Positions 40,185 through 57,500 of a DNA stretch of 64,000 bases are shown here, piece after piece; position 1 is the stretch's first letter, and every line of letters begins with the position of its first letter. The notes under the pieces are model-generated. The model had not been told where the DNA came from and ran no database searches. It saw only the letters and a program-made list of their open reading frames with translations. Where the stretch lies: NCBI GenBank assembly GCA_030430565.1, contig JAUIKS010000008.1:175225-239224 (forward strand). Direction: 5' to 3'. Source of the DNA: Polyangia bacterium. GTDB lineage: Bacteria > Myxococcota_A > Polyangia > Nannocystales > Nannocystaceae. A program made the translations under genes and the position numbers.

Positions 40185-40306
40185 GCCGCATATACGCCGC
40201 CCACGAACGCCGTTGGAGCGCGCGAGCGCTGCGTATGCACGCGGTTGTGGGCGCTAGCGCGCGTTGGGAGCGCTCGCTACGCTGGCCCGAAGAACAAGGA
40301 GTTCCC

Positions 40307-41311
40307 ATGCCTCGGAGCACGACGCACCGCCCCCTCCCGTCCCGTTTCGCCCTCCTCGGATCCCTCGCCCTCGCCTGCTCGCTCGCGGTCGCGTGTGAGA
40401 AGCAAGCCACGCAGACGCCCGAGTCGAGCCAATCTTCGGGTTCCCGCGCCGCCGAGCTGGCCGCGACCCAGGGCACCGACGAGGAGTTCCAGGCCATCGC
40501 CAAGGGCTTCGCGGACGCGTACAGCGCGCTGGGCTACGGCGACGTCGAGGGCGCGGTCGCGCGCTTCTCGGAGCAGATCGTGTGGGAGACGCGCGGCGGC
40601 GCGAGCGGCTCGGTCGACGGGCGCGAGGACCTGTTCAACTACTTCCGCAACAGCGGGCGCAGCGCGAAGATCGCGGCCGAGCGCGTGTTCCTGGCGGACG
40701 ACGAGGTCGTGATCTCGCAGGGCGTGATGATCGAGCAGTCGAAGGGCGCGGGCTTCGTCGCGATCGGGCGCATCATCGCCGGCGAGATCGTCGAGGTCGA
40801 GGAATTCCGAACGTCGCCGCCGGCCGACAGCAAGGGCCCCTCGCTGCCCTCCGAGACCGAGCTCATCACCGACTACGGCGACGACGTCAACAAGGCGCTC
40901 GCGGAGTCGCTGCACCTGGCGTGGAGCAAGCGCGACTGGTCGACGATCGAGGGATCGCTCTCGGGCGACGTGGTGCACCACGACGTCGCCAGCGGCGAGA
41001 CGACCCGCGGCTTTACGAGCTACAAGAAGTGGTTCGAGGGCTACACCCGCGCGTTCCCGGACATGAGCTTCGAGGTCCTGCGCTCGTGGGCTGCCGGCGA
41101 CTACGTGATCGTCGAGCGGCGCACCCGCGGCACGCACACCGCGAAGCTCGGCGAGCTCGAGGCGACCAACAACGCGGTCGAGCTCGAGGGCCTCGACATC
41201 TACCGGTTCGAAAACGGGATCATCGTCGAGATGTGGCGCTACCACGACGCCGCCGCGCTGACGGCCCAGGTCAACGCGGGTCAGCCGGCGGCGGAGCCCG
41301 AGAAGCCGTGA
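40307..41311 (+). CDS. Lipoprotein with tandem SnoaL-like / ester-cyclase (NTF2-like) domains
   Basis: Start MPRSTTHRPLPSRFALLGSLALACSLAVAC. Two repeats of the ester-cyclase-like pattern (..VVHHDVASGETTRGF..YKKWFEGYTRAFPDMSFEV..). Confidence 0.55.
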   Translation: MPRSTTHRPLPSRFALLGSLALACSLAVACEKQATQTPESSQSSGSRAAELAATQGTDEEFQAIAKGFADAYSALGYGDVEGAVARFSEQIVWETRGGASGSVDGREDLFNYFRNSGRSAKIAAERVFLADDEVVISQGVMIEQSKGAGFVAIGRIIAGEIVEVEEFRTSPPADSKGPSLPSETELITDYGDDVNKALAESLHLAWSKRDWSTIEGSLSGDVVHHDVASGETTRGFTSYKKWFEGYTRAFPDMSFEVLRSWAAGDYVIVERRTRGTHTAKLGELEATNNAVELEGLDIYRFENGIIVEMWRYHDAAALTAQVNAGQPAAEPEKP

Positions 41312-41318
41312 GCGCGCG

Positions 41319-42662
41319 TCACGACTGATGCGCGAGCCGCTCGCGCCGCAGCGGCATCGTCAAGCAGCGACCGCCGCCGCGCGCCCGCGACAGCTCGCTC
41401 CCGGAGAAGCTGAACACCGCGCGCGCCTGCTGCATCCCGTCGGCGATCAGCTCCGCGCGCTGCTCACTCGAGAGCACCGCGCTGATCCGGCGCTCGGCGA
41501 AGCCGTGCTCGAGCAGCTCGGCGATGGTCCGACTGTTGCGGCTGTAGAGGATGATCTTGCCCGGCGCGACGCAGACCGCGTTGGCGCCGTCGGTCCACTG
41601 CTCGCGCTCCTGCTGGATGATCTCCTGCCCGCCGCAGGGGACGAGCTGGAGCTTCGCGCCGAATTCCTCGCGCAGGACGTCGAGCACGGTCGCGCCCACG
41701 AGCAGCTCGGCCTCGCGCTCTCGCTGCAAGCGCGCGACCGGCAGCGGCTTCACCTCGCCGCGCTGCTTCGACCCGGCGATCAGCGGCTCGTGCCCGAGGA
41801 ACAGCCCGTCGTCGATCTGCGTCAGGATCGTGTCGAGGTGCATCAGCGAGCGGTGCGCCGGCATCAGCACCGCGTACACCCGCTCCAGCGCCGGCAGGTT
41901 CGGGAACAGCACGCGCTCCGCGAGCCGCTCGATCGCCTCGGCCGAGGTCCGCTCGGAGCAGCCGATCATGATCCACTCGTGCGAGGGCACCAGCACGTCG
42001 CCGCCCTCGAGCGTGAGGTGGCGGGCGCCGTCGGGCGCGATCGGCGTGAGCGGCGGCCCGAAGCCCGAGGGCAGGCCCCAGCGCAGCGAGAAGCGCACGA
42101 GCTCCGGCTCGCGACCGCGCGCGCGCCGACACATGTTGCCGACGACGATCTGGTCGCCGATCGCTATGCAGGGGTCGCGCATGAACATCAGATTAGGCGT
42201 CGGCCGCAGCGCCATGTCGAAGCGGTCGAACAGCCGCGCGCGCACGCGCGCGAGGCTCTGCGGCGCGCCCGGGATGTCGCTCCAGTGCAGCCCGGCGATC
42301 AGCGCGATCGCCAGGCGCTCGGGTGACCACTCGAGCAGGTGATCGGTGAGCGCCTCGACCCCGCCGTGTACGCACACCGCCGCGAGCAGCCGGCGGGTCT
42401 CGGCGATCGGCGCGCGTCGCAGCGCGCGCCGCAGCAGCGACTCGAGACCGTGCACGCGGGCCCCCGCGCCGCGGAGGATGTCGGTCATCACGTCGTGCTC
42501 GCGCTGGGTCTCGACCGGCGACAGGATGTCGTCGAACAGCAGCAGCTCGAGCTCGTGCTGCGTCATGTGCGAGATCTCGAGCCCTGGTCGACGGACCACG
42601 ACGTCGCGCAGCGGGCCGATCTCGTTGACAACCTGGATCCCGACTTCCGTAGCGCCTGACAT
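41319..42662 (-). CDS. arcA: Arginine deiminase (amidinotransferase superfamily)
   Basis: N-terminus IQVVNEIGPLRDVVVRRPGLEI matches the ADI N-terminal block. C-terminal catalytic Cys in GGGRCLTMPL. Confidence 0.65.
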   Translation of the reverse strand: MSGATEVGIQVVNEIGPLRDVVVRRPGLEISHMTQHELELLLFDDILSPVETQREHDVMTDILRGAGARVHGLESLLRRALRRAPIAETRRLLAAVCVHGGVEALTDHLLEWSPERLAIALIAGLHWSDIPGAPQSLARVRARLFDRFDMALRPTPNLMFMRDPCIAIGDQIVVGNMCRRARGREPELVRFSLRWGLPSGFGPPLTPIAPDGARHLTLEGGDVLVPSHEWIMIGCSERTSAEAIERLAERVLFPNLPALERVYAVLMPAHRSLMHLDTILTQIDDGLFLGHEPLIAGSKQRGEVKPLPVARLQREREAELLVGATVLDVLREEFGAKLQLVPCGGQEIIQQEREQWTDGANAVCVAPGKIILYSRNSRTIAELLEHGFAERRISAVLSSEQRAELIADGMQQARAVFSFSGSELSRARGGGRCLTMPLRRERLAHQS

Positions 42663-42750
42663 GCGCTGGACTATAGCGGCGGATCTCGGAGGCGCCGCCC
42701 GCCCCCGCGTGAGGCGACGACGCGCGCGAGTGAGGATCCGCGAAGCCGCG

Positions 42751-44073
42751 TCACGGGCAGTCGGCGTAGATCGTCATCTGCTTGTCGTCGGCGGGCTCGC
42801 CGTTGCTGTTGGCCTCGCGCAGCTCCTGGCAGGCGAGCCCGCACACGACGATCACCCCCTTCGAATTCTCGTCGGGGAGGATGAAGCCGTGCATGTTGTC
42901 GTCGCACACCTCGAGGCGATCGAGCGCCTCGCCGTCGAGCTCGACGTCAACCGACGCGTCAAACTCCGCGAGGGTCATCCCCCACAGCTCCGGCGGCAGC
43001 GTGGTCACGCAGAACGGCAGATCGTTGAGCAGCTCCAGCTTCTTGTACAGCCCCTGCTCTGAGTCGGCCCGCTTAAACGCCGGGTAGCTGTCGATGTCAG
43101 CCATCCCGCCCGCGAGCGCGAGCTCGTGCAGCGCGTCCCAGACGTCGACGTCCGGCTCCATGTCACCGGGCTCCGGAGGAAGGTCCTCGAGGATGCTGAG
43201 GCCGATGACCATCGAGAACATGTGGTCGTCGTAGCCCTCGAGGAGCTGCTGCTCAGCGTCGCTGTCGTAGGTCTCAAACAGCGCGTATGGATCGACGCCG
43301 TCGTCGGTGTCGCAGTTCGGCGCGCCGCTCGTGATGATGACGATGAACTGCATCGCGTCGCCGTTGGCGGGGCTCGCCCACAGCGCCTCCTTCGCGCTCT
43401 CGATCGCCTCGGCGAGCGGCCGCCCGCCGCCCATCTCGGACGGGTCGAAGGGCAGCGCGCTGTCGAAGCTGTTGTACGCGTTCAGCATCAGCGGCGCCTC
43501 GGGATCCGGCTGCACGCCGCAGGCCTCAGCGCCCTCGCCGGGCGCGCCGAGCTCGGGCGCGAGCACGAAGCCCATCCGCGCCCACTGGCCGAGCGCGCTC
43601 GCCTTCGCCAGCACCGCCGCGCGCACGCTGTACCAGTGCAGCACGAACTGATCGTCCATCGGGTCCTCGGTCACCGGGAAGTACCCCCCCTGCATCGCCG
43701 CGGACTTGTCGAGGATGAACATGATGTCTGGCGGCAGGATCTCCAGCTCCACCTCGAGCGGCGCGCAGCCGCCGTCGTCGGAGGTCTCGCCAGCGGTGCC
43801 CACGCTCGTGACGCCGCCCGTGCCGACCGTGCTCGAGGCCGCGCTCGTCGCGAGGCTGCCCTCGGACTCGCCGCCCGCGCTCGTCCCCGTGACCGTCGCC
43901 TCGCTGCTCGCGCTCGAGGACGCGCTGACCGAGTCCCCAGAGCCCTCGGAGGCGCTCTCCTCCGGCGCCACCCACTCGAGGTTGAGGGCGAGGCAGCCCG
44001 ACGAGAGCAGCAGCGGGAGCGCGACGAGCCCACGCGCGAGCGACCCGCCGCGTCGATGCGCGCGCGTTTCCAC
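42751..44073 (-). CDS. Acidic lipoprotein with degenerate vWA-like domain
   Basis: Lipobox LLLSSGC. S/E-rich linker. FILDKSAAM (DxSxx MIDAS-like) and VIITSGAPNC. Confidence 0.35.
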   Translation of the reverse strand: METRAHRRGGSLARGLVALPLLLSSGCLALNLEWVAPEESASEGSGDSVSASSSASSEATVTGTSAGGESEGSLATSAASSTVGTGGVTSVGTAGETSDDGGCAPLEVELEILPPDIMFILDKSAAMQGGYFPVTEDPMDDQFVLHWYSVRAAVLAKASALGQWARMGFVLAPELGAPGEGAEACGVQPDPEAPLMLNAYNSFDSALPFDPSEMGGGRPLAEAIESAKEALWASPANGDAMQFIVIITSGAPNCDTDDGVDPYALFETYDSDAEQQLLEGYDDHMFSMVIGLSILEDLPPEPGDMEPDVDVWDALHELALAGGMADIDSYPAFKRADSEQGLYKKLELLNDLPFCVTTLPPELWGMTLAEFDASVDVELDGEALDRLEVCDDNMHGFILPDENSKGVIVVCGLACQELREANSNGEPADDKQMTIYADCP

Positions 44074-44207
44074 GGCCCTACACTACAACATGTCCCCTAG
44101 TTCCAATCCGTAGAATGGCGCGTTTTATCTGCGCGCCGCGTCCTCGCGTCGCGAGCTCGCATAACTGCGCGAACGGTCATATTCGAGATTCGCGGTCGCG
44201 CGGTCGC

Positions 44208-44831
44208 TCAGCGACGCAGCTTGCTCGCCAGGTCGGTGCCGATCACCAGCTGCAGCGCCGCGCGCAGCTCGGGGTGCGCCTTGAGCGAGGCTCGGAGCGC
44301 GGCGCAGTCCCACTGCAAGAACGCGGTCTCGCGGGTCGCGGAGACCTCCGCCGAGCACGGGCGCTCGGTCAGGAAGCCCATCTCGCCGACGAACTGCCCC
44401 TCGCCCAGCCGCGCGACGACCTCGCCGTCGACCGCGACCGCGAGCTCGCCCTGGTCGATGACGCGCAGCGCGTCGAGCTGCTGGCCGCGCGCGAGGATCG
44501 ACCGCCCGGCCGGCACGGTCACCCAGGTCGCGCACTGGGCGAGCCGCAGGAACTCGCGCGGCGAGAGCGAGCGGAACACGAGCTGGTAGAGCCGACGCTG
44601 TCGCGCGTCGAGCGTGACCGGGCGCCGCTCCAGCAGCAGCGTCCGGATCTGCAGCACGTTGATGCCGATAAACACCGAGTTCCAGCAGATCGGCGCGATC
44701 AGCCCGTTGGCGAAGTAGTAGGGGATCAGCATGCCGATCGCGACGATCGTCAAGAGTCGCAGCCAGAGGATGTCGCGGACCAGATAGGACGCGAGGAACA
44801 GGACGTTCGCGACATGAATCAAGTAATTCAT
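44208..44831 (-). CDS. 3-TM membrane protein with C-terminal cyclic-nucleotide-binding-like domain (Popeye-like architecture)
   Basis: N-terminal hydrophobic helices (YLIHVANVLFLASYLV, LLTIVAIGMLIPYYF, APICWNSVFIGINVL). cNMP-like block GEGQFVGEMGFL...RPCSAEVSA. Start overlaps the upstream gene stop by 1 nt. Confidence 0.6.
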   Translation of the reverse strand: MNYLIHVANVLFLASYLVRDILWLRLLTIVAIGMLIPYYFANGLIAPICWNSVFIGINVLQIRTLLLERRPVTLDARQRRLYQLVFRSLSPREFLRLAQCATWVTVPAGRSILARGQQLDALRVIDQGELAVAVDGEVVARLGEGQFVGEMGFLTERPCSAEVSATRETAFLQWDCAALRASLKAHPELRAALQLVIGTDLASKLRR

Positions 44832-45493
44832 CAGACGACCCCCTTCCCCGCGAGCGAGCGCTCACCGCGACCCGCGACCGCGCGCAGCGCCGCGTCGACC
44901 AGCTCAGTCGGATCGGCGTTGTCGGCGATGTACTCGCTGCGGTGCGCGTAGGTGATCACGCCGCTTTGGTCGACGACGACCGCCCCGCCCTGCTGCGCGT
45001 GGTCACCGTCGGCGCGGTGCTGCTGGTACCCCTCCCCGATCGCGCGCAGCTGCGAGTAGAGCGCGCGGCCGCCGAAGGTCCCCAGCCACGCGCGGCGCAG
45101 CCCGGCGGCGCCGTAGCTCGCGCGCTCCGGGTCGCTGACGATCGTCACGCCCGCGCCCGCGAGCCCGTGTCGCGCGACGAAGCCGGCGATGTTCTCCGGC
45201 CGACCGTTACCGACGAAGACGACGTTCACGCCGAGCAGCTCGAGCTCGTGCAGCCGCGGCGAGATCGCGGCGACGTGCTTGCTGCAGCCGACGCAGCCGA
45301 AGTGCCGCAAGAACACCACCACGCTCGCGCGGCCGCCCACGAATTCACGCAGCGGTCGCCGCCCGCCGCCTTCGTCCGTGACCACCGCGTCGAGCAGCGC
45401 CTCCGGCAGCGCGCCTCCCACCGAGAGTCCATCCATCCCCGTGATGATAGGCCGCCCCGGCTGATCGCCCGCCGGGCGCTCGCGCGCGCGCAC
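44831..45493 (-). CDS. Thioredoxin-fold peroxiredoxin-like (AhpC/TSA-type redoxin) protein
   Basis: VVVFLRHFGCVGCSKHV CxxC redox motif in redoxin context. Confidence 0.55.
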   Translation of the reverse strand: MRARERPAGDQPGRPIITGMDGLSVGGALPEALLDAVVTDEGGGRRPLREFVGGRASVVVFLRHFGCVGCSKHVAAISPRLHELELLGVNVVFVGNGRPENIAGFVARHGLAGAGVTIVSDPERASYGAAGLRRAWLGTFGGRALYSQLRAIGEGYQQHRADGDHAQQGGAVVVDQSGVITYAHRSEYIADNADPTELVDAALRAVAGRGERSLAGKGVV

Positions 45494-45572: not shown

Positions 45573-47369
45573 TCAGAAGAGCACGATCCGCACGTCGCGG
45601 ACGCACGAGAGCCCGCGCAGCAGCTCGCGCGCGAGGTAGCGAAACAGCGTGTCGAGACAGATCTCGCGCGAGAAGCCGCCGTTGCCCGTGGCCAGCAGCG
45701 GCAGCGCCAGGGTCTGCACGTTCAGCGTGTCGGCGTGATAGATGCAGCTGCCCAGGATCTCGCAGATCAGGTCGCGGCTCGGGCCCGGCCCCCCGCCGAA
45801 GCCGCGGCCACGCAGCGTGATCCCGTGGAACACGAAGCGCGCGCTCAACCCCCCCGCCGAGGTCACGACCGCTCGACCCGCGCGCACCGGGATGTAGCGC
45901 TGCGCCTGGTCGTAAACGGCCTCGCCCGCGGCCTGACGGATCGCTCGCGAGACGCCGCTGCGCATGGTCAAGAACTGATCGTCAGAGCTGACGAGCGCCT
46001 CGACGTCCTGATCGACCAGGTCACCGCAGACGATCGTCAGCGTGCGCGCGTCCGGGAAGTCGTAGCGGTCGAGGATCCGCCCGCGCGCCCTGCCGGTGCC
46101 GTCCGCGACCTCGAGGTAGTGCGCGCGCCGAGAGCGGTAGCGCTCGAGGTGGGGCCGCAGCGCGACGTCCTCGACCGCGTCCCAGGGCGAGATTGCGTCG
46201 ACGACCGGATCGATGACGGCGAGCACCTCGGCGAAGGACGAGAAGCGCTCGGAGGGGGACTTCGCCAGGCAGCGCTCGACAATCTCGCTCGTCCGCGCGC
46301 TGATCGCCGGGTTGAGCGAGCGCGGCGGCGTGAGCGGCTCGGTCTTGTGCTTGTGCAGGATCGCGAACCAATTCCCGCCGTCGAAGGCGGGCCGCCCGGT
46401 CAGCGCGTGGTAGAAGGTCGCGCCGAAGCTGTAGATGTCCGCGCGCGTGTCGACGCGGCGTGGATCCTCAGCTTGCTCAGGGGCCATGTACCACGGGCTC
46501 CCGAGCACCTGCCCGACCAGCACCGCCTCGTCGATCTCGCTCGGCCCGCGCGCCAGCCCAAAGTCGACCACGCGCGCCGCCCCTTCGTCGTCGACGAAGA
46601 TGTTCGAGGGCTTGAGGTCGCGGTGGATGATGCCCTCCTGCGCCGCCGCCAACATCCCGCGCGCCGTGTCTCGCATCCACCGGATCACGCGCTCCTCGTC
46701 GATCCCCACGTCGCCTGACTCGCGCTCTTCCGCCCGCATCACGCGCGCGAGATCAAGGCCGTCGATCCACTCCATCACGAGCACGGGCCCGCGCTCGGGG
46801 AGGATGTCGAAGTCGTGGATCTCGACCACGTGCGGCGAGTCGATCTTCGCCAAGATCCGCGCCTCTTGCAGGAAGCGACCCCGCGGGGCGCCCGGCAGCA
46901 GCACCTTGATCGCTACCTGCTTCTCGAGCGTTCGGTGCCGCGCCCGGTACACCACCCCCATCCCCCCGCGCCCGACCTCCTCCAGCACCTCGTAGCGCGC
47001 GCTCACGTCTCCGTCGCCCAGCACGAAGCCCTGCAGATCGTCGCTTGGTGACGGCCGCGTGCTGTGCGTCGCGCCCTCGCGCGAGGGCAGCGTCTCCGCG
47101 CCCTGGGCCCACAACGTCTCCGCGTGCGACGCCCGCTCAGTCGCGTGCTCGCTCCGCTGCGTCTTGCCGCGATCGTGCAGGGTCGTCTCCAGCTCCATCG
47201 CCGGAGGCGGTTCCGCGCCCTCACCCGCCGCGCTCGGGTCCCTGCGCGACGCCGTCATCGCATCCTCCACACGGGCAGCATCCCCCACCCCTTCGTGCGC
47301 AGCAAGCGTCCGCGCGCGGAAATTCGACCCCCGCCCACCGCCGCGACGCTCAGCGAAGGGCCGAAGCAC
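45573..47369 (-). CDS. Ser/Thr protein kinase fused to C-terminal macro-like (ADP-ribose-binding-type) domain
   Basis: Kinase motifs (GRGGMGVVYRARH, AIKVLL, HRDLKPSNIFV, DFGLAR, APE). C-terminal about 190 aa LTIVCGDLVDQDVEALVSSDD...RAIRQAAGEAVYDQAQRY...GRAVVTSAGGLSARFVFHGITL follows macro-domain spacing but lacks canonical NAAN/GGGV. Confidence 0.7.
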   Translation of the reverse strand: MLRPFAERRGGGRGSNFRARTLAAHEGVGDAARVEDAMTASRRDPSAAGEGAEPPPAMELETTLHDRGKTQRSEHATERASHAETLWAQGAETLPSREGATHSTRPSPSDDLQGFVLGDGDVSARYEVLEEVGRGGMGVVYRARHRTLEKQVAIKVLLPGAPRGRFLQEARILAKIDSPHVVEIHDFDILPERGPVLVMEWIDGLDLARVMRAEERESGDVGIDEERVIRWMRDTARGMLAAAQEGIIHRDLKPSNIFVDDEGAARVVDFGLARGPSEIDEAVLVGQVLGSPWYMAPEQAEDPRRVDTRADIYSFGATFYHALTGRPAFDGGNWFAILHKHKTEPLTPPRSLNPAISARTSEIVERCLAKSPSERFSSFAEVLAVIDPVVDAISPWDAVEDVALRPHLERYRSRRAHYLEVADGTGRARGRILDRYDFPDARTLTIVCGDLVDQDVEALVSSDDQFLTMRSGVSRAIRQAAGEAVYDQAQRYIPVRAGRAVVTSAGGLSARFVFHGITLRGRGFGGGPGPSRDLICEILGSCIYHADTLNVQTLALPLLATGNGGFSREICLDTLFRYLARELLRGLSCVRDVRIVLF

Positions 47370-47529
47370 GCTGAATACGCGCCGCGGAGCGCTCGCGCGC
47401 CTCTCTATAGGAAGACCACGTGCTGGTCCAGCTCAGCGAACTGCGGGACTTGGCTGGCGGCGGAAGTCCTTGCCGCGCGCGAGCGAGCTGCGGCCCCCGA
47501 CCTGATAGGGGCGTGGCCCCGTAGTGTTC

Positions 47530-50500
47530 TTACATGTCCTCGTAGCCCGCTTTCACGATGTGCAAGGCCCACTCGGTGTCAATCCAGCGGGTCGACTTGT
47601 GCGGTGTCCCGTCGAGGTAGCGGTGGCGATGCACCCGCTCTTGGTCGAGTACCCCGCCAGTCCGCGCGACATCATCTCGGGCCGCGAGCACCCAACCGAG
47701 ATCTGTTGTCGACACCGAACGCTCGGCGAATCCTCCGGTCCCACCATCGACCCGAAGTCCGCCCTTCGCAGCGCCTCCGATGATCCGCAATCGCGTCGAG
47801 CCCTGGGCGATCCATGAACCGGGAGGGTACCGGTCGAGGACACGCTTCACGAGCGCCACGGCTTGCTCGCGCCAGCGACGAGCCAGTGTCCGCGAAGCGC
47901 CGCGTCCCTTGCCGAGCGCTCTCCACGTTGCGAAGTCGACCTCCGGGATCTTCCACGCCGAATCGCGCCAGCGCCCAACCCCGGCGTATCGCCAGCCAGA
48001 CGCGTGCCGGGTCATGACGAACGCCGTCTCCGAGGGGCGACGGTTGGGTACGGGGAGTTCGACCGCGTCAGGCGCGGTCAGCGGTCCTTTGCTCTCCACG
48101 AGTAGGAACAGGTGCCCATCCACACGTGACCACGGACCGCGGGGGGGCTCGGAGAGCTTGAACCTCGCCACCAGGTCCTCGTTGCTCAGGAACTCGCCAA
48201 CGAAGGGCGCGAGCTGCTCGGGACGAACCACGTCGACGACTCGCGCGAGGACGGTCGTCTCCGCTGTGACTGGAAGGTCAGGTGCATCGGGGTTGTCCGA
48301 GCGAAGCTCAAAGCCGCCCTTGGCCTTCACGAGCCGCTTGAGGTGGTGGGCGAAGCCCGTGTGGGTGTCGCCCCGCGCAACCAGGACAACGCGCCCGACG
48401 ACCGCGGCGAGCGGAAGGCCGCGCCCCCACTCGAAGACAACCCAATCGCCGTCGCAGATCGGCTTGGATCCACCGCACATCGAGTCTCCATAGGCGCGGG
48501 TCGCAAATCGATTCTCGGCGGTTTCAACGGGGAGGCGCACGTAGTCCGCTTCAGCCTCAACTTCGACCGCCGGCCTCGAGATTGAACCGGCGGCCACCTC
48601 CAAGCTTGGGTACGCGACGAACCTGCCCCTTGGAACAAGGTCGATGACAGCAGCGAGAGGCTCGACCCACCAGCCGTCGGGCGCCCGCCGAAACTGAACG
48701 CGATACCGAGTGCCGGTTGCTCCCGCGCTTGGTCCGAACCACTGTCGGAGCAGATCCGGTAGCTTGTTGTCACGCGCGCCAACCGGCCGCGCCACATTGA
48801 CCGCGACTTTGACGAAGCGAAACAGCCACATCGAGCCGTCCTCGAGCCGTACCTCGGTATCGCCGTGCGGGAGTCGCTCGCGGCCCTTCGTCGGCAAAAA
48901 CAGGATTGGGCCCTTGGAGTTGTGCGAGACGTTGCAGACGAAGGAACTCTCGCCTGCGATCGAGTCTTCGTCGACTCGGGCGCGACGTTGATAGCGTGCG
49001 AGACGAGCGTCGACGAGCTGCCACGTCATCTCGACGAGCGCGTCGCGAGCCGCGGGGTCTTCCGGCGGCGGCAGCCGGAATCGCAGCGCGTCGTCCTGTA
49101 TGGAGAACCACGGCCCCTTCGTCCACGCCTGGATCGGGTTCTTTCGCCAGTAGCGACGCCACACAGCGGGCTCCGGAGCGCGCGGATCGGGTAGAGCCTT
49201 GACCCCCTTGAGATCCTCGAACAAGACAGGGTTGCGAAGCAGGTAGGCGTGGCTGCGACGCGCGAGCTGCTCGAGCGGCATCCCGTCGAACAGGGCCTCG
49301 GACGTAAGGAGCACTTCGAGCACGACCATCTTGAAGCACTTCGTCAGGCTCTCGCTGGCCTCGACGGCGTGCAGCCAGTCCTCGCCGTGTACGTAGGCTT
49401 TGCGCTCGGCTTCGCCGAGGTCGTTCTCGTCGCCAACGAACTCGAACCAGCTTTTATAGCGCTTTCGAATCGCGCGGATACTCTGTCCGAGTCGAACCAG
49501 TTCTCCGGGTGTTGGGCGAGTTCCACGTTCATCACGGAGTTCGCGGTAGACCTGCACCGCCGGGATCGCGTGGGAGGCCGGCGTGAGTTTCTTGAGCAGC
49601 TCGATGGCCTCGAGCTTGATCTCCACGCTGCATCCGGCCGGGAGTTCCAGCGTCTCCGGTCGCTCGAGGAATTGGGACAGAGGCGGCGCAGACGGTGAGA
49701 GCGTGAGCAGCGTGCGCACGCGGCCGAGGAACACCTTGTGATTGCCGACAAAATCGATGACCTCGAGGACATCTTTGCCCTCCGAAGTTCGCAGGCCGCG
49801 CCCGAGTTGCTGGAGAAACACCAGCGGCGACTCTGTTGGACGCAGCATGACGACCCGGTCGATCTGTGGCACGTCGATGCCCTCGTTGAACAGGTCGACC
49901 GCCGCGATGGCCTCGAGCTGACCGGAGTCGAGCTGCTCGAGGGCGTCACCACGGGACGCCGACGTTTCGCCCGAATGAACCGCGACGACTCGAACGCCCT
50001 TGCCCTTGAGCCATTTCGCAACGTAGTCCGCATGGCCGATCGACACGCAGAACACGAGCGTGCGAGTCGCGGGCCGCTCACACCACGCTTCGTACAGGCG
50101 CGACATCCGGGCCTCGGTCTCCACGAGTCGAGCCAGGTGCTCGATCGTGAACTGACGCCACGGCATGGGTTTGTACTCGGTTGTATCCGCGAGCCCTCGG
50201 TAGTGAAACGGCACAAGCAAACCACGCTGGATGCCCTCGCCAAGGTCGGCGCGAAAGGCAACGTGGTCGTCGAAGATCCCGCCGATATCGCCCTGGTCGG
50301 CGCGCTCCGGTGTGGCCGTAAGGCCGAGCAGGAACTTCGGATCGAGATGCGCGAGGAGCCGCCGGTAGGTCGGTGCGGCCGCGTGGTGCACTTCGTCTAC
50401 GATGACGTAGTCAAAGCTTGTCGCCGAGAGTCGGGCGAGCTGCTCGGGTCGCGTGAGCTTCTGAACCGACGCGAATACGAACTCGGATGACAGGTCGTCA

Positions 50501-51816
50501 GACGCCCCGTGAAAGAAGCCAAAAGTCGCGCTGGGAAACACGCGGCGAAACGTAGCGCTCGCCTGAATGAGCAGCTCACGGCGATGGACGAGGAACAGCA
50601 CACGAGTGCGAAGCCCCCGTCGTTCGCAAAACGCTTTGACATCGAATGCGGCCAGAAACGTCTTGCCGAGACCCGTCGCCAGGACCACCAAGGCGCGCTC
50701 GCGGCCATCGTCGCGGCTGCGCGCGAGAGCCTCGAGCGCGTCATTCTGGACACCGCGCGGAGCGACCAGCTCGTCAGTGATACCCTCTGCTTCCCCGATC
50801 GGCAGCTGCGCGTTGTCGGCACTCCGTCGGGCGTATTCCTGAAGCCATACCTCATCAAGGGTTCTCGCTCTCGCCCAAAGCTCGTCGAATGCTCCGACGA
50901 TGGCCGCGTACGCAGCGGGGTCGCGCGCGGCCTCTGTTCGCAGGTTCCACTCGACCCCAACGCCCAGGGCTGAGTCGGACCAGTTTGAGCTCCCGACGAA
51001 CGCGACAGCAAAATCGGGACCCTCAAACCGCCATGACTTTGGGTGAAACGCTCGATTATTTTGCAGCCTGGTCTCAACAACGCGTACCGAGAACGATCCG
51101 GGGCCCTCAGCTTGTGCGAGCTGCGCCCAGTCGAGTAGCCGGCGAAGCGCCTGAACCTGGGTGATGGCCAAGTAATCGCCAGTAACGACGCGAATCGTTG
51201 CACCACGTTCGAGCGCTTCATCAATCTGCACAGAGAGCGTATCTACCCCGGTGTGTTGGACGAAAGCCGCGACAATAGAGATCTGATCCGCGCGCTCAAA
51301 CAAATGGCGGACCGGACGACGAAACGGGTCGTCGGGACCCCCCACAACAAGTGGAGCCGCACGCGCAGCTCGGTTCGCCCACTCGTGCTCGGTGGTGGGC
51401 CGAGGGATGAATCCTGCCTGTTTGTAGTTCCCGTACCTGGGAATGACGAAACGAACGCCGCCCCGTGGGTCATCAACATCTCCCGTGTAGCGGGGAATCA
51501 CATGAATATGGAGATGGTCGACGGTCTGGCCAGCGGCATGTCCGGAGTTGAAGCCGACGTTGTATCCGTCTGGCTTGTGCGATGCGTCGAGCTGTCGTTT
51601 GACCGTCTCGACGAGTTCGAATATCGCGGTTTGCTCCTCGCGGCTGGCGTCGAACCAGGTCGCCACCACCCGATGGGGGATCACGAGCGTGTGCCCGTCA
51701 CTAACGGGGTAGGCGTCGCGAATGGCAAAGGCCAGCTCGTTCGAGGCAACCCACTCGCTGTTCGAAATCTCTGTAAACGGAGAACTCACGACGAATCGAC
51801 CTCGAGCCTTACACAC
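47530..51816 (-). CDS. 1428-aa fusion: HIT hydrolase - PLD (HKD) nuclease - SF2/ResIII helicase - DUF3427-like region - B3-like DNA-binding domain - LexA/UmuD-type S24 peptidase - unknown C-terminal domain
   Basis: HIT HLHIHVIP. PLD FHPKSWRF...GSSNWS. Helicase I ATGLGKT, II VDEVHH, III LTATPER, VI LQQLGRGLR. B3-like FVCNVSHNSKGPILFLPTKGRERLP..GSMWLFRF. S24 site VAAG(S) at aa 1074-1077, GDSM at 1110-1113, DGDWVVF, HLKRL (Ser1112/Lys1160). Confidence 0.85.
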   Translation of the reverse strand: MCKARGRFVVSSPFTEISNSEWVASNELAFAIRDAYPVSDGHTLVIPHRVVATWFDASREEQTAIFELVETVKRQLDASHKPDGYNVGFNSGHAAGQTVDHLHIHVIPRYTGDVDDPRGGVRFVIPRYGNYKQAGFIPRPTTEHEWANRAARAAPLVVGGPDDPFRRPVRHLFERADQISIVAAFVQHTGVDTLSVQIDEALERGATIRVVTGDYLAITQVQALRRLLDWAQLAQAEGPGSFSVRVVETRLQNNRAFHPKSWRFEGPDFAVAFVGSSNWSDSALGVGVEWNLRTEAARDPAAYAAIVGAFDELWARARTLDEVWLQEYARRSADNAQLPIGEAEGITDELVAPRGVQNDALEALARSRDDGRERALVVLATGLGKTFLAAFDVKAFCERRGLRTRVLFLVHRRELLIQASATFRRVFPSATFGFFHGASDDLSSEFVFASVQKLTRPEQLARLSATSFDYVIVDEVHHAAAPTYRRLLAHLDPKFLLGLTATPERADQGDIGGIFDDHVAFRADLGEGIQRGLLVPFHYRGLADTTEYKPMPWRQFTIEHLARLVETEARMSRLYEAWCERPATRTLVFCVSIGHADYVAKWLKGKGVRVVAVHSGETSASRGDALEQLDSGQLEAIAAVDLFNEGIDVPQIDRVVMLRPTESPLVFLQQLGRGLRTSEGKDVLEVIDFVGNHKVFLGRVRTLLTLSPSAPPLSQFLERPETLELPAGCSVEIKLEAIELLKKLTPASHAIPAVQVYRELRDERGTRPTPGELVRLGQSIRAIRKRYKSWFEFVGDENDLGEAERKAYVHGEDWLHAVEASESLTKCFKMVVLEVLLTSEALFDGMPLEQLARRSHAYLLRNPVLFEDLKGVKALPDPRAPEPAVWRRYWRKNPIQAWTKGPWFSIQDDALRFRLPPPEDPAARDALVEMTWQLVDARLARYQRRARVDEDSIAGESSFVCNVSHNSKGPILFLPTKGRERLPHGDTEVRLEDGSMWLFRFVKVAVNVARPVGARDNKLPDLLRQWFGPSAGATGTRYRVQFRRAPDGWWVEPLAAVIDLVPRGRFVAYPSLEVAAGSISRPAVEVEAEADYVRLPVETAENRFATRAYGDSMCGGSKPICDGDWVVFEWGRGLPLAAVVGRVVLVARGDTHTGFAHHLKRLVKAKGGFELRSDNPDAPDLPVTAETTVLARVVDVVRPEQLAPFVGEFLSNEDLVARFKLSEPPRGPWSRVDGHLFLLVESKGPLTAPDAVELPVPNRRPSETAFVMTRHASGWRYAGVGRWRDSAWKIPEVDFATWRALGKGRGASRTLARRWREQAVALVKRVLDRYPPGSWIAQGSTRLRIIGGAAKGGLRVDGGTGGFAERSVSTTDLGWVLAARDDVARTGGVLDQERVHRHRYLDGTPHKSTRWIDTEWALHIVKAGYEDM

Positions 51817-51911
51817 TCAAGGACATCGGTCATTCTCTGTAATCCCACACGCCACGAAACGGTAGATTGGCGTTCGCAATGTCATCATGACTACTCCAGC
51901 GCTGCGCGGGC

Positions 51912-52907
51912 TCACTGCTCAAAGCAGTATAGATGTGCTGGGAGTGCGCACGGAATGGTGTCTCCAAACGCGGACCAACGTTCATCCGTGTAGTTTGATT
52001 TCCCGAACTGTCCTGGCTCGAGATCGTCGCTGGTCCACTCAGAACAGTGCGCCATGTCGGGATGCTGCTCTCCCCAGGGCACAGTATTCGTCCACACCGA
52101 TACACCGTCGAGTAATTGACCGCTCTCGTCCATATCGATGGGGGCTTCGAGTCCTCCATCGACCAAGTCGTTCCAGTTGTCGGCTACCTTGGTCCCGTCG
52201 ACCAGGACATATCGTCCCTCGGACTTGAAGAAGTGTGTAGACGGCGAGTACTCGGACCCGCTGATCCAAGGACGAAAGTCGATGGCGTTCTCGAAGCCGG
52301 CCTCAAGCGCACGCTCGCGGCAGCGATTGATTGCACCGTCGATACCAGATAGATCTCCGAAATACGCTTCACTCGAGACAAAGACGACGCGATCGCGGGC
52401 GCAGGCGGTGTTGCAGCCGTCGTCTTTCTGATTGCCATCGTCACACTCCTCGTTAGGGCCAACGAAACCGTCGCCGCACATCGGGAGCAGACACGCGTTG
52501 GTGCATTCGTCGCTATTCTCGTCGTTGCCGTCGTCGCACTGCTCCCCTACTTGGACCTGACCGTCGCCACAATCCGCCGGCTCGCTCGTGTTGGTCGGGT
52601 CGCTGGTTGTGGAGCTCATCGCTGTCGTCGTGCCCGACTCGCTCTCGGACATCGTCCCGTCGGGACCACCGGTTGTCGTCTCGCCGCCCGTCATCGATGT
52701 GGGCTCAGTTTCGCTCTCGCTCCCCGACCCAACCTCGCTCATGCTCTCGCTCTCGGAGTCCCACGTCACCGTGATCTCGAGCGCTTCTTGCGAGGCCGCC
52801 TCGGCTTGGCATCCGACGAGGAACATGGCCAAGGCCGCGTGTTCGGCGTGTTCGAGTACTCGGGTTGACTTCGAGGGTCGCATCACGGACTCGCTCATCA
52901 TCGCCAA
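51912..52907 (-). CDS. Secreted protein with two Myxococcus cysteine-rich repeats and C-terminal DUF1554-like domain
   Basis: Hydrophobic signal LAMFLVGC. T/S/E-rich linker. CGDGQVQVGEQCDDGNDENSDEC and CGDGFVGPNEECDDGNQKDDGC. Cys-containing C-terminal domain ending LYCFEQ. Confidence 0.6.
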   Translation of the reverse strand: MAMMSESVMRPSKSTRVLEHAEHAALAMFLVGCQAEAASQEALEITVTWDSESESMSEVGSGSESETEPTSMTGGETTTGGPDGTMSESESGTTTAMSSTTSDPTNTSEPADCGDGQVQVGEQCDDGNDENSDECTNACLLPMCGDGFVGPNEECDDGNQKDDGCNTACARDRVVFVSSEAYFGDLSGIDGAINRCRERALEAGFENAIDFRPWISGSEYSPSTHFFKSEGRYVLVDGTKVADNWNDLVDGGLEAPIDMDESGQLLDGVSVWTNTVPWGEQHPDMAHCSEWTSDDLEPGQFGKSNYTDERWSAFGDTIPCALPAHLYCFEQ

Positions 52908-53021
52908 AATCGCGCGGAGATGGAAAAGCCCGTGTACCGCGGTCCAAGTGTAGGTGCAACACGCACAAACAACGAGATCGAAGTTACTGTTTCCGTTTGG
53001 CGCGTGCCCGTTGGGCGCCTA

Positions 53022-56000
53022 CTACGTCGCGCGGTAGCGTGTCCCGCGGGCGTTGCCACGGCAGGTCACCAGACCTTCTGTGCCCAACCGGGACAAGCTC
53101 GCTCGCAGCTGCAAGGGTGTACCTCCAGTCAGCTCACGCAACTCCGCCGCGGACGCGGGATGGTCAAAGGAGCGCACCGCCTCGAGCACCGCGCGATCGT
53201 ATTCCTGACGACCCTGCGCGGTCCGGGTGTTGATCGCCCGGGCCCGCGGTGATGTCCGCGTCGTGCCGCGCTTCGTCGTCTTCGCGCCCTTCTTCGCTGG
53301 CACAACACAAGCGACAGCCGGACGAGACGCGGCCACGTCTTCATCGCGCTCGACATCACCGTCGGACTCCAGCAGCGCCATCAGCTCCTCGGGCGAGAAG
53401 CGCGTCACGCCGCCGTCGCTCGCCAGCAGGCCCTCGGCCAGCGCCCGCTTCTGCTCGTGCAGCTCGAGCACCGCCTGCTCGATCGTCCCCTGCGACACGA
53501 AGCGGACGACCGTCACGGGCTTGTCCTGACCGATCCGGTGCGCGCGGTCGCTGGCCTGATCCTCGACGGCGGGGTTCCACCACGGGTCGAGGTGGAGCAC
53601 GTAGTCGGCGGCCGTCAGGTTGAGCCCGGTCCCGCCCGCCTTGAGCGAGATGAGGAACAGCGGCGCGTCTCCGGTCTGCCAGCGCTCGACCAGCTCGGCA
53701 CGCCGCTTCGCGGGGGTGGAGCCGTCGAGGTAGAGGTGCTCGAGCGTGGTCGCGTCCAGGCGCTCGCGGACCAGCGCGAGCAGGCCGGTGAACTGGCTGA
53801 ACACCAGCGCCCGGTGGCCCTCGGCGTGCAGCTCCGTGACGAGTTCCATGAAGGACTCGAGCTTGGACGAGGTCGCGCGCGAGCCCTCCTCCATGAGCTT
53901 GGGGTGGCACGCGAGCTGGCGAAGCCGCGTGAGCGCGGCCAGGATCGCGAAGCGGGCGTCTGGATCGTCTTCCCCAGGCCCATCTCGTCGGCCAGGCACG
54001 CGCCGGCGCCCCACTCCGCCAGGCGCATCAGCCACTCGAAGCCCTCACGCTGGTAGTCCCGCAGCGTCCCGTTGAACGCGGAGGGGACCCGCGGCTCGAT
54101 CTCCCGCCGCTATGCGCTCGAGCAACCTCGAGGTCGCGTCGTCGATGTCGAGCTGGGCCGCGTCCTCGACGAGTTCGGCGACGACGTTGACGGCCGCCGC
54201 TCCGCTCACGAGCTTGTCGCGCACGGGCGCGAGCGCGGCGTCGCTGTCGGCGAGTCGCCGCGCGAGCGCGCGCTCGAGCTCGACGAAGCGCTCGGGGCCC
54301 ACGCGGACGAAGCGACGACCCCCGCGCGCGGCCGCGAGCAGCTCACGCAGCGGGATGCGCTCGCCGTCGACCGTGACCTCGCCCTCGACCTCGAACCACT
54401 TCGGGCCCCGCCGCAGCTTCACGCGCAGGTCTCTCGGCGACGCTCGCTTCTTGAGCACGCGCCACGCCTTGCGCCCGGTCCACTCGATCGCGAGCGGGGG
54501 CTCCCCCTCCTCGGCGCGGCGCTGGAGCTCCGTGAGCAGCGCGAGCGCGGGCTGGAGCTCTTCGACGCGGTACTGGTGCTCGCGCTCCGTTCGGAAGCGC
54601 TCGAGCTCGAGCTCGCGCTCGAGCGCTTCGACGGCGCGGCGCTCTTGCTCGAGATCGCGCCGGGCGTGCACACGCTCGCCATCGAGCGCCCCGTACACGC
54701 TCGTGGGTCCCTGTCCCGGCGGCCATACCGAGCCGCCCTCACCGAGCGGCGCGCTCACGAGGGACACGACGAGTGATTCGTCGTCGGGCGTGAGACGCAC
54801 GACGAGCGCGGCGCCGCGTGAGACGCTTCGGCCCTGAAGCGCCGGCGGCAGCTCGAGCCCGACCGCGGGCTGGAGCTGTTGAAGCAGCGGGAGCAGCGAG
54901 GCGTAGGCGTCCTCCGGGAGACCGGCGCGATGCGTCTCGATCAACTCACGCAGCCCGTCGACGAGCGGCGTGCGCTCACAGAACACGCACACGCCGGTTT
55001 TGGGCTCGAACACGAACAACACCGCCCGCGCGTGATCCTCGGCGAGTTCGTGCTCTCGCAACGCGCCGAGGCGAAGCTCGAGATACGCGAGCTCCTCTCG
55101 CTGCGTCACGACGAGCGTCGGCGAAACCTCGCGCAGGCGTATGCGTTTGCTCGGATCGTCCGCCCGGAAGACGAGCTCGTGCTTGCACAACGCCCGCAGC
55201 GCGCTGAGCTGCGTACGCGCCGAGACCGAGCGTCGAGTCCAGCGGTAGTCATGCTGGATCTCGAGGGCGTCGGCGATCTCGCGGTCGAGCGGCGATGGCT
55301 CGGCGCTCTGCCACTGGATGTCATTCGGGCTGCACTTGCTCCCCGGGCTCCAACCGCCGCGCTTCTTTTGTTTCTGCACCGCAGGCCGAACCGTCAGCGC
55401 GCCGTCGCGCAGGTCCACGCGCCAGGTGACTCTCCGGGGCGCCGTGCTCGCGACAACACCGACGCTGTGCCGTCGCACCAGGCGATCGAGCGCCTCGACC
55501 GTCCGTGACCAGCCAAAACCCCCGGCGATCTCGAGCAGCGCTTCGTGGAGCCCGTGATCTGGATCGAAGAGCGCGTCGAGCGTCCATTCAACCAAGGAAC
55601 GCGCGTGGGCACGTTCGTGTCGCTTACGGTGGAAATCAAAAGACAGCGGCCGCGCGCGGTAGTCTCGCAGCGACAGGCTGACGGTCTTGCCCAGCTCGGA
55701 GTGCAGCACCGTGAGCGTCCGCTCTTCGCGGTGGAGCTCGACGATGATCTCGGCGACCAGCACAGGCTCCAGCGCGCGGGGTTGCGACCGGATGGCGTCG
55801 CGGAGCTCCGTCAGCGCGCGCGCGAGCAGCTCGAGCGGACGCGCAGGCAGCGGAGTAGACCAGAGCCCCATTCGCTTGCGATCGAGCGCGGTCCGCCGCG
55901 CCTCGGTGTACAGCTGCTTGCGCGCGGCCTCACGGGCGCGGTCACCAACGCTGCTCCAAAGGACATCCATCATGGGAGGCGGCGTGAGCGGTGGCACCAA

Positions 56001-56483
56001 CAGCTGGATATAGGTCGGCGTACCGACGTGATCGAAAAGGCCCGGCGGGATCCCGCCCCAAGCCGCGAGCTCGGGCACCGGCGCGTCGAGCAGATCCGCG
56101 ACGCCGTGTCGCTTCGCCCAGGCGCGCAGCGGCTTGGGCTCGCGCGGCGGCGAAGGAACATCGATCCCGACGTAGAGCTGGCGGGGCGACCAGCGGACGC
56201 GCTGGTCATCCGTGTCGGCGACGGAGAGCGCGTCGACGAGTTCCCGAATCAGGATGAAGCGCATCTCTTCGGGTAGCTCCTCGTCGAGATACCGGTGAAA
56301 CACGGGGCTCGAGAGCAGCTCTCCCATCGTCTGAATGTTCAGGAGTCGGGCGAAGTCACGGACGAACTCGACGGTGTCCCAATCACCGTCGATCTCGTCG
56401 ACGGCGATCGAGTTCAACATCCGCGCCCGCGCTGGTACTCGGAGCCAGCGCTTTAACCCTTGGACCGTCGTCGGGGCTCCCAT
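53022..56483 (-). pseudogene. SNF2-family helicase, disrupted (frameshift before DYQ motif; internal deletion of ATPase lobe 1 after Walker A)
   Basis: An 812-aa N-terminal ORF (54045..56483) ends in a stop. +1 frame reads [40 protein letters not shown] (SNF2 Q/Walker A). Then a frame change gives [22 protein letters not shown], joined directly to helicase-C (LDGSTP, WWNPAVEDQASDRAHRIGQ). About 250 aa incl. DExH missing. Confidence 0.55.
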
Positions 56484-56750
56484 GGTGGCAGTATAGCGCG
56501 AATTCGCGCATTGCTGCCCTGCAACTGAATTGGCACAGACCGCCGCTGGTGGTCAGCAGTACGCGCGCGGAGACCGGTCGCGTCAAGGATCGGATTGTGG
56601 TGCCGTTGTTGCTCGCGCTAGCCAAGGGCGTCCCTCCGGACTCGTCCCCGTAGCGTCTTCACTAGCTCAATCGCCTGCGACCTGCCCGTTCGGCTGTCGA
56701 GGCCAAGAGCCACGCCCGCGTCTCGTGGCCTGCTACGCTCGCCACGCGGC

Positions 56751-57500
56751 ATGCAGCTCCACCAACTCCCATTCTCCCACTACAACGAGAAGGTCCGCTG
56801 GACGCTCGACTACAAGCAGCTTCCGCACGAGCGCGTCACGTACTTGCCGGGGCTGCACATGCGCCCGATCCGTCGGCTCACTGGGAGCACGCAGACGCCC
56901 GTGCTCGTCATCGACGGCGAGGCCCTCCGCGGCTCCGCGACGATCATCGACACGCTCGAGCGACGACACCCGTCGCCCGCGCTCTACCCCGAAGACCCCG
57001 ACGCGCGCGCGCAGGCGCTGGCGATCCAGCGACGCTTCGACGATGAGTTCGCGCCGGCGATTCGGCTCGCGCTGTTCGCCGAGATCCTCGAGGACGGCGC
57101 CTACTTCCCCGACCTGTTCTCGCTCGGCAAGCCGTGGCTCGTGCGGGCGCTGTACCGGCTCGTGTTCCCGCTCGGCGCTCCCACGGTCCGCAAGGTCAAC
57201 GGCGTCACGGGGCCCGCGGCCACGGTCGAGGCGCTCGCCACGACGCAGGCGGCGCTCGACTTCGTCGACGCGCTGCGCGGCGGTCGGACCTACCTCGTCG
57301 GCGAGGCGTTCTCGATCGCGGACCTCGCCGCCGCCGCGATCTTGATGCCGACCGCCGACCTCCGTCACCCCGACGTGCACCGCGACCTGCCGAAGGGCGA
57401 GGCGATCCGCGCGTGGGAGCAGCGCTGGGCCGCGCACCCGACCGTGCGCTGGGTCGAGCTGATGTACGAACGCCACCGCCCGCTCCGCCAGCGTCGCTGA
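56751..57500 (+). CDS. Glutathione S-transferase family protein
   Basis: N-terminal thioredoxin-like GST fold (LHQLPFSHYNEKVRWTL...TPVLVIDGEAL) and helical C-terminal domain. Confidence 0.65.
   Translation: MQLHQLPFSHYNEKVRWTLDYKQLPHERVTYLPGLHMRPIRRLTGSTQTPVLVIDGEALRGSATIIDTLERRHPSPALYPEDPDARAQALAIQRRFDDEFAPAIRLALFAEILEDGAYFPDLFSLGKPWLVRALYRLVFPLGAPTVRKVNGVTGPAATVEALATTQAALDFVDALRGGRTYLVGEAFSIADLAAAAILMPTADLRHPDVHRDLPKGEAIRAWEQRWAAHPTVRWVELMYERHRPLRQRR

Follow-up and report, generated by a model that had tools for sequence, protein, structure and literature searches.

A family of bacterial Hanks-type kinases with a C-terminal macro domain, candidate sensors of ADP-ribose-type ligands, and one member beside an inserted helicase island

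The DNA considered here (the window) is a stretch of 64,000 nucleotides from a Polyangia bacterium (GenBank assembly GCA_030430565.1, contig JAUIKS010000008.1, positions 175,225 to 239,224 of the forward strand). One of its (-) strand genes, found within an open reading frame (ORF) of 598 codons at 45573..47369, encodes a Hanks-type Ser/Thr protein kinase fused to a macro domain and is called the kinase-macro gene in what follows. It lies next to a giant gene for a HIT-PLD-helicase-S24 protein, and a first-pass annotation, made from the sequence, had suggested that it might be a second component acting with that nuclease-helicase. The best explanation of the whole, to which we give a probability of roughly two in three, is a different one, namely that the protein is a soluble cytoplasmic and catalytically competent Hanks kinase joined through a conserved helix to a macro domain that binds an ADP-ribose-type ligand, and that it is no partner of the giant protein.

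The C-terminus of the protein is a bona fide macro domain with the three-layer alpha/beta/alpha fold (aa 432-597 of the 598-aa ORF; 45579..46076, (-) strand), as found by Pfam, phmmer against the PDB, AlphaFold2 (AF2) and Foldseek. The Pfam Macro profile, PF01661, matches aa 465-573 with 51.9 bits against a gathering cut-off of 22 (E 8.7e-14), and phmmer with the last 210 aa retrieves from the PDB PARP14 (E 3e-14), Thermus TTHA0132 (2e-13) and macroH2A1.1 (4e-10). An AF2 model built with 23 homologues has a mean predicted local distance difference test score (pLDDT) of 91.2, a predicted template-modelling score (pTM) of 0.88 and the expected beta-alpha-beta order. The Foldseek matches of probability 1.00 in the PDB are macro domains only, more than 50 solved ones, with macroH2A1.1 ranked first (TM ~0.7-0.8), followed by TTHA0132 (root-mean-square deviation 1.9 Å over 155 columns), PARP9, PARP14 and MacroD-type enzymes. 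The macro assignment, offered as unverified in the first-pass annotation, is therefore borne out by the hidden Markov model, by sequence matches to solved structures and by the predicted fold, the profile comparison with PF01661 proposed there having come out above the cut-off. The annotation was also right that the canonical NAAN and GGGV motifs are absent; SSDD and RSGV stand in their places.

The kinase domain occupies aa 126-380 of the ORF (46230..46994, (-)) and matches Pfam Pkinase PF00069 with 147.2 bits against a cut-off of 31.7 (E 7.6e-43). The motifs expected of such a domain are all present, GRGGMG, VAIK (K155), HRDLKPSN (D251, N256), DFG (D269) and APE, so that the canonical Hanks kinase N-terminus claimed earlier holds both by profile and by every catalytic residue. 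In an alignment of 82 orthologues, from which all counts of conserved residues given here are taken, K155, D251 of HRD, N256, D269 of DFG and the APE motif are invariant (82/82). Because the catalytic residues are kept without exception, the orthologues are predicted to be active kinases under purifying selection. The protein is without a transmembrane segment. Between kinase and macro domain lies a linker helix (46104..46166, (-); the SPWD...YL.RY..RR..YL region) that is conserved in the orthologue alignments and is modelled with high confidence by AF2 as residues 365-385 of a 561-aa protein, the form most likely to be translated (see later). The full-length AF2 model has a pLDDT of 82 and a pTM of 0.83 despite a disordered N-terminus of 69 aa and a disordered activation loop, which suggests that the kinase, helix and macro domain may be held in a defined, fixed arrangement.

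The macro domain carries a family signature, V-S-S-D-[DT]..L.M..G-V-[SA], FHG, PSRDLI.EI..SCFYHAD and FPLLGTG.GGF, in which hallmarks of the structure and of the pocket are strongly conserved. The pocket element of loop 1, G472-V473, is conserved, H515 of the FHG motif is invariant, and in loop 2 (FPLLGTG.GGF) G562 is invariant and F566 is present in 74/82. The adenine-contact position is Asp in 51/82 and Asn in 27/82, hence D or N in 78/82. Conservation of the pocket loops, of the GF aromatic residue and of FHG is the pattern expected of a maintained ligand pocket, and these elements are under selection.

The catalytic loops are another matter. The equivalent of NAAN is SSD[D/T], with Asp in 41/82 and Thr in 31/82 at the position of the catalytic Asn (464); the last Gly alone of the GGG loop is retained (79/82), the GGGV region reading x-x-G-V-[S/A]; and where MacroD1 has Asp/His after GGGV, this family has Ser/Arg. 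The marks of a MacroD-type hydrolase, the Asn of NAAN and the GGG/Asp-His loop, are thus lacking. In viral and MacroD macrodomains hydrolysis is lost when the Asn is substituted, and as the catalytic Asn is replaced by Asp or Thr and the Asp/His by Ser/Arg, a binding ‘reader’ is favoured over a hydrolase. The balance leans slightly towards a macro domain that would bind a ligand, as a sensor or as a targeting module, and not act as a hydrolase.

An ‘eraser’ would make the protein a bifunctional enzyme, its macro domain an active ADP-ribosylhydrolase or O-acetyl-ADP-ribose deacetylase that de-ADP-ribosylates the same targets that the kinase phosphorylates. PARP9 and PARP14 macro1 possess hydrolase activity, which counts for this possibility, as do the Pfam Macro match itself, the presence of MacroD-type hydrolases (TTHA0132, YmdB, MacroD1/2 and the Oceanobacillus macrodomain) among the sequence and structure neighbours, and the automatic annotation at JGI, which calls many members of the family ‘O-acetyl-ADP-ribose deacetylase’. 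The loss of the catalytic Asn, of the GGG loop and of the Asp/His tells against hydrolysis, however, and the best structural matches are the macroH2A1.1 readers, which are non-catalytic; we consider an eraser unlikely.

A reader suggests the following mechanism. The macro domain would bind an ADP-ribose-type ligand, which might be free ADP-ribose, O-acetyl-ADP-ribose, another NAD+-derived nucleotide or an ADP-ribosylated protein. Binding would then either gate the activity of the kinase allosterically or recruit the kinase to ADP-ribosylated targets, and the NAD+/ADP-ribose status of the cell would thereby be converted into Ser/Thr phosphorylation. Ligand binding, the reader role (the more likely one, in preference to that of eraser) and regulation of the kinase are each inferred here from the sequence.

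The architecture is not peculiar to this strain. The top matches to the full protein, more than 120 in number, are all Pkinase plus Macro, share 50-65% identity with it and are typically 480-630 aa long, and the metagenomic fragments found with the C-terminal 210 aa nearly all extend upstream into the kinase C-lobe. A scan of one genome per species yielded 26 full-length orthologues, aligned from aa ~120 to 598, whose hosts are Polyangia, many Planctomycetota, Leptolyngbya-type Cyanobacteria, Gemmatimonadota, Acidobacteriota and Eisenbacteria. All-against-all clustering of the neighbours at orthologue loci found no conserved neighbour family, and among 90 flanking ORFs surveyed with Pfam and PADLOC no family was enriched, the maximum being 4/90 and these being other kinases. 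The kinase-macro proteins are a conserved, vertically inherited, single-gene family of kinase-rich bacteria with complex lifestyles (Myxococcota, Planctomycetota, filamentous Cyanobacteria, Gemmatimonadota and Acidobacteriota). The ‘Pkinase;Macro domain’ architecture has been tabulated for two Planctomycetota proteins, QDU77209.1 and QEH36151.1 (supplement, PMC11032199), and databases assign it by automatic annotation. Searches of the literature for a characterised fusion of this kind in bacteria returned this census entry only and no functional study; the architecture is thus already catalogued, and functionally uncharacterised in the literature found.

The macro domain itself also occurs with other partners. 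A profile of its clade run against 1.84 billion representative proteins gave 260 matches at E ≤ 1e-30. A Pfam scan of 56 representatives of the clade found PF01661 in all, together with Pkinase in 43, SpoIIE/PP2C in six, GAF in two and an ECF sigma domain in one; three of the 56 are PARP14-like (PARP plus WWE). Among the metagenomic proteins are kinase-macro-SpoIIE (PP2C) variants of ~850-890 aa and one in which a second kinase follows the macro domain (P0195, P0226, P0244, P0246 and P0196), and in each of these the macro domain is placed between catalytic signalling domains. In more distant cyanobacterial relatives it forms the C-terminus of AAA_35-WD40, AAA_35-GUN4, HEAT and transmembrane/coiled-coil proteins. 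With such varied partners, the clade would seem to act as a portable ligand-binding module of signal-transduction proteins.

Two of these cyanobacterial layouts may be described further. At seven loci (L029, L031, L034, L036, L037, L039 and L040), mostly cyanobacterial although L039 is labelled as an Actinomycetota metagenome-assembled genome (MAG), a macro domain of the same clade is C-terminal to an AAA_35 ATPase, with or without WD40 propellers (701 to 1,652 aa) and in one case as AAA_35-GUN4; the AAA_35-macro proteins look like STAND-like signalling or conflict proteins. Three further cyanobacterial loci (L028, L030 and L033; e.g. L030 9122-10537) encode proteins of 471-474 aa that begin with transmembrane helices, continue as a long coiled coil and end in a macro domain of this clade.

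One tentative proposal, for which the odds fall a little short of even, is that the Pkinase-Macro family and its kinase-macro-PP2C relatives form a switch found widely in bacteria, with Ser/Thr phosphorylation gated directly by an NAD+-derived ligand or by an ADP-ribosylated protein. If true, the family would provide the first case in bacteria in which ADP-ribose signalling is coupled directly to signalling by Hanks kinases. Were the macro domain to sense ADP-ribose-type ligands, ADP-ribosylation and NAD+ turnover would be linked to Ser/Thr phosphorylation in developmentally complex bacteria. The family is abundant (more than 120 orthologues, in at least 43 clusters at 50% identity), soluble and compact, which makes it a tractable test system.

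A role in phage defence was also weighed. The gene could be a single-gene anti-phage kinase of the PD-T4-6 or Stk2 type, whose macro domain would detect phage-induced ADP-ribosylation, or an immune signal derived from ADP-ribose (ADPR), and set off abortive phosphorylation. The kinase domain does match the PD-T4-6 and mad6 models of PADLOC at 1e-69, macro domains do sense ADPR-derived signals in Thoeris ThsA (PMC11204291; bioRxiv 10.1101/2024.01.03.573942), and in this strain the gene adjoins a defence-type island, to which we return. The PADLOC kinase matches are generic, however: unrelated kinases flanking the orthologues reach 1e-132 on the same models, and on this control the PD-T4-6/mad6 matches were set aside as marking no more than a Hanks kinase. 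The macro region taken alone matched no PADLOC model, and a DarG-like identity, or that of any other known defence macro domain, was rejected on that ground. Furthermore, the neighbourhoods of the orthologues are not enriched in defence or TIR/SIR2 genes and include housekeeping genes (His-tRNA synthetase, SSB, P450); the stable synteny in close relatives argues for vertical rather than island-like inheritance; the composition of the gene is native; and relatives from the macro clade were not found in IMG/VR viral contigs. A dedicated defence kinase is, on this evidence, very unlikely.

It is also conceivable that the macro domain binds no nucleotide and serves the kinase purely as a structural or protein-interaction (dimerisation) module, and the absence of canonical NAAN and GGGV and the variable adenine-contact Asp would suit such a part. 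The phosphate-loop glycines, the GF aromatic residue and FHG are nevertheless strongly conserved, not only in the 82 orthologues but in the distant cyanobacterial relatives, which makes a ligand-free scaffold highly improbable.

The extent of the gene bears on its relation to the giant neighbour. The window is ~70% G+C, with Myxococcales and Polyangia MAGs as nearest relatives, and the ORF 45573..47369 has coding-type composition, with a G+C content at third codon positions (GC3) of 0.91, the strong bias of real genes here. The frame and its 598 aa had been given correctly in the first-pass annotation, and the motifs quoted there, HRDLKPSNIFV, DFGLAR and LTIVCGDLVDQDVEALVSS..., are all found in the translation. 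As listed, the frame starts at a GTG at 47369. The start codon is most likely the ATG at 47256-47258 (M38 of the 598-aa ORF), which gives a gene at 45573..47258 (-) of 561 aa plus stop. The public gene call also has 561 aa and this ATG; a Shine-Dalgarno-like GGAGGA (47263..47268, (-)) lies 4 nt 5' of it, in a block identical in a close relative (locus L166); the L166 orthologue, 93% identical, begins at the equivalent ATG; and homology to orthologues starts near aa 44 in the 598-aa numbering. With this start the GTG falls in non-coding upstream DNA and the real intergenic gap to the giant gene becomes 271 bp. The two genes share a strand, as reported, and the 160-bp gap reported with it is correct from ORF to ORF but not as a gap between genes. 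The first ~69 aa of the protein (47052..47258, (-)) are non-conserved and predicted to be disordered (AF2 pLDDT <50 for residues 1-69 of the 561-aa protein), and the orthologue alignments begin at aa ~118-126 of the 598-aa ORF.

The adjacency of the kinase-macro gene to the giant gene is a lineage-specific accident, produced by an island inserted 142 bp upstream of the kinase-macro start codon. This is evident because L166 lacks window positions 47401-56729 while keeping both the kinase-macro gene and its native upstream region. The L166 gene is 88% identical in DNA; directly and divergently upstream of it stands a GST gene (window 56751-57500), and 15 bp replace the 9,329 bp of the island. 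Without the island, the intergenic regions of the window and L166 align, and they share conserved blocks as well as the Shine-Dalgarno sequence. The native upstream region, at 47259..47400 (-), which aligns in this way with the L166 GST/kinase-macro intergenic region, is the probable promoter. In a second relative (L164), whose kinase-macro protein has 83% aa identity, seven downstream genes are kept in order beside a different upstream gene. This downstream block (window 40252-45493, (-)) encodes an AhpC/TSA-like protein, a cyclic-nucleotide (cNMP)-binding POPDC-like protein, a protein of 437-440 aa without Pfam match, arginine deiminase, SnoaL, a methyltransferase and a fatty-acid hydroxylase; it is syntenic in the two closest relatives and not at more distant kinase-macro loci. 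Both of these relatives retain the kinase-macro gene and the genes downstream, without the giant.

Wider sampling gives the same picture. A tblastn search for homologues of the giant at 80 macro-clade loci, with flanks of up to 10 kb and including the 26 full-length orthologues (19/26 having at least 5 kb of upstream sequence), found none, and a kinase-macro gene was found near none of 86 giant-family loci (80 from metagenomes, with Enhygromyxa, Anaeromyxobacter, Sorangium, Pyxidicoccus, Polyangium and a Planctomycetes MAG). The co-occurrence analysis that the first-pass annotation had called for therefore comes out negative in either direction (0/26 and 0/86), and with the closest relatives also lacking the giant, its idea of the kinase-macro protein as a second component fails. 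From these comparisons the kinase-macro gene would, with high confidence, be independent of the giant gene. Two more Hanks kinase genes are present in the window, at 18937-21333 (-) and 21538-26460 (-), with the motifs HCDIKSEN and HCDVKPRN. The window thus holds three Hanks kinases in 64 kb, an expanded kinome, and at this density a kinase beside any given gene is unremarkable. A two-gene system, in which a co-transcribed kinase-macro gene ties the nuclease-helicase to ADP-ribose signalling and phosphorylation, can point to the shared strand, to the 271-bp spacing without a terminator-like site and to one giant orthologue that is followed by ADP_ribosyl_GH and SIR2_2 genes, but it is scarcely credible given that the pair co-occurs neither way, that the island is absent from a 93%-identical relative, that GC3 differs (0.74 versus 0.91) and that both genes belong to large, independently existing families. 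The same strand and the adjacency to a striking defence-type gene were misleading here, and it took a near-identical relative to reveal the giant as insertion cargo.

The island (47401..56729, (-)), absent from the L166 locus with its 88% DNA identity, lies outside the kinase-macro unit and is probably a horizontally acquired island of defence type. Its G+C of 0.61-0.65 forms the trough of the window, the flanks being at ~0.70, and GC3 is 0.74 in the giant gene and 0.72 in a DUF4215 gene, as against 0.91 in the kinase-macro gene. The ends of the island show no integrase and no clear target-site duplication. The giant gene (47530-51816, (-)) encodes HIT, PLD-like, ResIII/Helicase_C and Peptidase_S24 domains (Pfam), and its protein matches the PADLOC type IV restriction model mREase_IV with 324 bits. 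The DUF4215 gene is at 51912-52907 (-). Beyond it, two ORFs of 337 and 812 aa lying 9 bp apart (53022-54035 and 54045-56483, (-)) resemble the SNF2 helicase DpdE and together match a single PADLOC DpdE profile, over positions 293-790 and 1057-1267 of 1282; they represent a helicase that has been split or pseudogenised, or else a protein genuinely made in two parts. In the gap between the giant and kinase-macro genes a consensus scan found no terminator-like or promoter-like site, and RNA folding gave no more structure than in shuffled controls (z = 0.02). A GC hairpin, GGGGC-CAC-GCCCC, does occur within the island 10 nt past the giant stop codon (47508-47520, (-)); it is without a U-tract and could be a weak terminator or stabiliser.

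The giant has a family of its own, with more than 100 full-length members of ~1,410-1,450 aa and 50-56% identity in Myxococcota and Planctomycetota. Its neighbours are often integrases, HNH, McrBC, DUF1156/DUF499 and a second PLD-helicase-DUF3427, a flavour of restriction and defence, and no conserved partner gene was seen at the loci examined (including L082, L083 and L167-L170). In Polyangium sp. 15x6 the orthologue of the giant (L169 10433-14245) is preceded by a phage integrase and followed by an ADP-ribosylglycohydrolase (PF03747), a SIR2_2 protein and a WD40 giant; the ADP-ribosylglycohydrolase/SIR2 pair looks like a neighbouring defence system. A Pfam census of 42 flanking ORFs found an ADP-ribose-related neighbour at one of 16 giant loci bearing the HIT domain.

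Several points weigh against a ligand-responsive kinase unconnected with the giant. The role of the macro domain as a sensor is deduced from the domain architecture and from the residues that are conserved. In about one-third of the orthologues Asn takes the place of the adenine-contact Asp, and the first two Gly of GGGV are not conserved, so the ligand may differ from plain ADP-ribose. As there is no terminator-like element in the gap, read-through co-transcription from the giant gene may occur in this strain. Lastly, the ADP_ribosyl_GH and SIR2 genes behind the Polyangium sp. 15x6 giant hint, as an isolated case, at an ADP-ribose theme in the surroundings of the giant family.

The kinase-macro protein may be compared with several known systems. 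DarG of DarTG has a macro domain in common with it, although the macro domain in the window has no PADLOC DarG match and no DarT neighbour (the gene is flanked by an AhpC/TSA-like gene and by the giant helicase gene), and the two domains differ in class, DarG being ALC1/TARG1-like and this domain macroH2A/MacroD-like. The cyanobacterial relatives of the macro clade match DarG only weakly (E 2e-5 to 0.056). The MacroD-type hydrolases (TTHA0132, YmdB, MacroD1/2 and Af1521) have the same fold, but the residues of their catalytic loops are not conserved here, and they are stand-alone enzymes rather than fusions. The readers macroH2A1.1, PARP9 and PARP14 provide the best matches in both sequence and fold and have a similar loop 2, G-[TS]-G-x-x-G-F, and the macro-clade profile also retrieves many PARP14-like multi-macro proteins; the kinase-macro protein differs from these readers in being prokaryotic, in its single macro domain, in having a kinase as fusion partner instead of a histone fold or a PARP catalytic domain, and in its VSSD[DT] signature.

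In the type II Thoeris protein ThsA, which joins a transmembrane (TM) and a macro domain, the macro domain binds ADPR and IAD and switches the attached effector (PMC11204291). The likeness lies in the use of a macro domain as a ligand-sensing module, and the transmembrane, coiled-coil and macro layout of the proteins at L028, L030 and L033 is similar. The kinase-macro protein, in contrast, is without a TM domain, starts with a disordered tail followed by the kinase, has a kinase as its output, and has neither TIR/ThsB among its neighbours in the window nor a conserved defence context. A final comparison is with the Hanks-type Ser/Thr kinases of Myxococcota and Planctomycetota that carry C-terminal accessory sensors (WD40, TPR, PASTA, PQQ or cNMP). 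The accessory domain here is a macro domain, of which no functionally studied case in a bacterial Ser/Thr kinase was found in the literature, and there is no TM segment; in its canonical Pkinase domain joined to a modular partner, and in the kinase-rich phyla that harbour it, the kinase-macro protein is like them.

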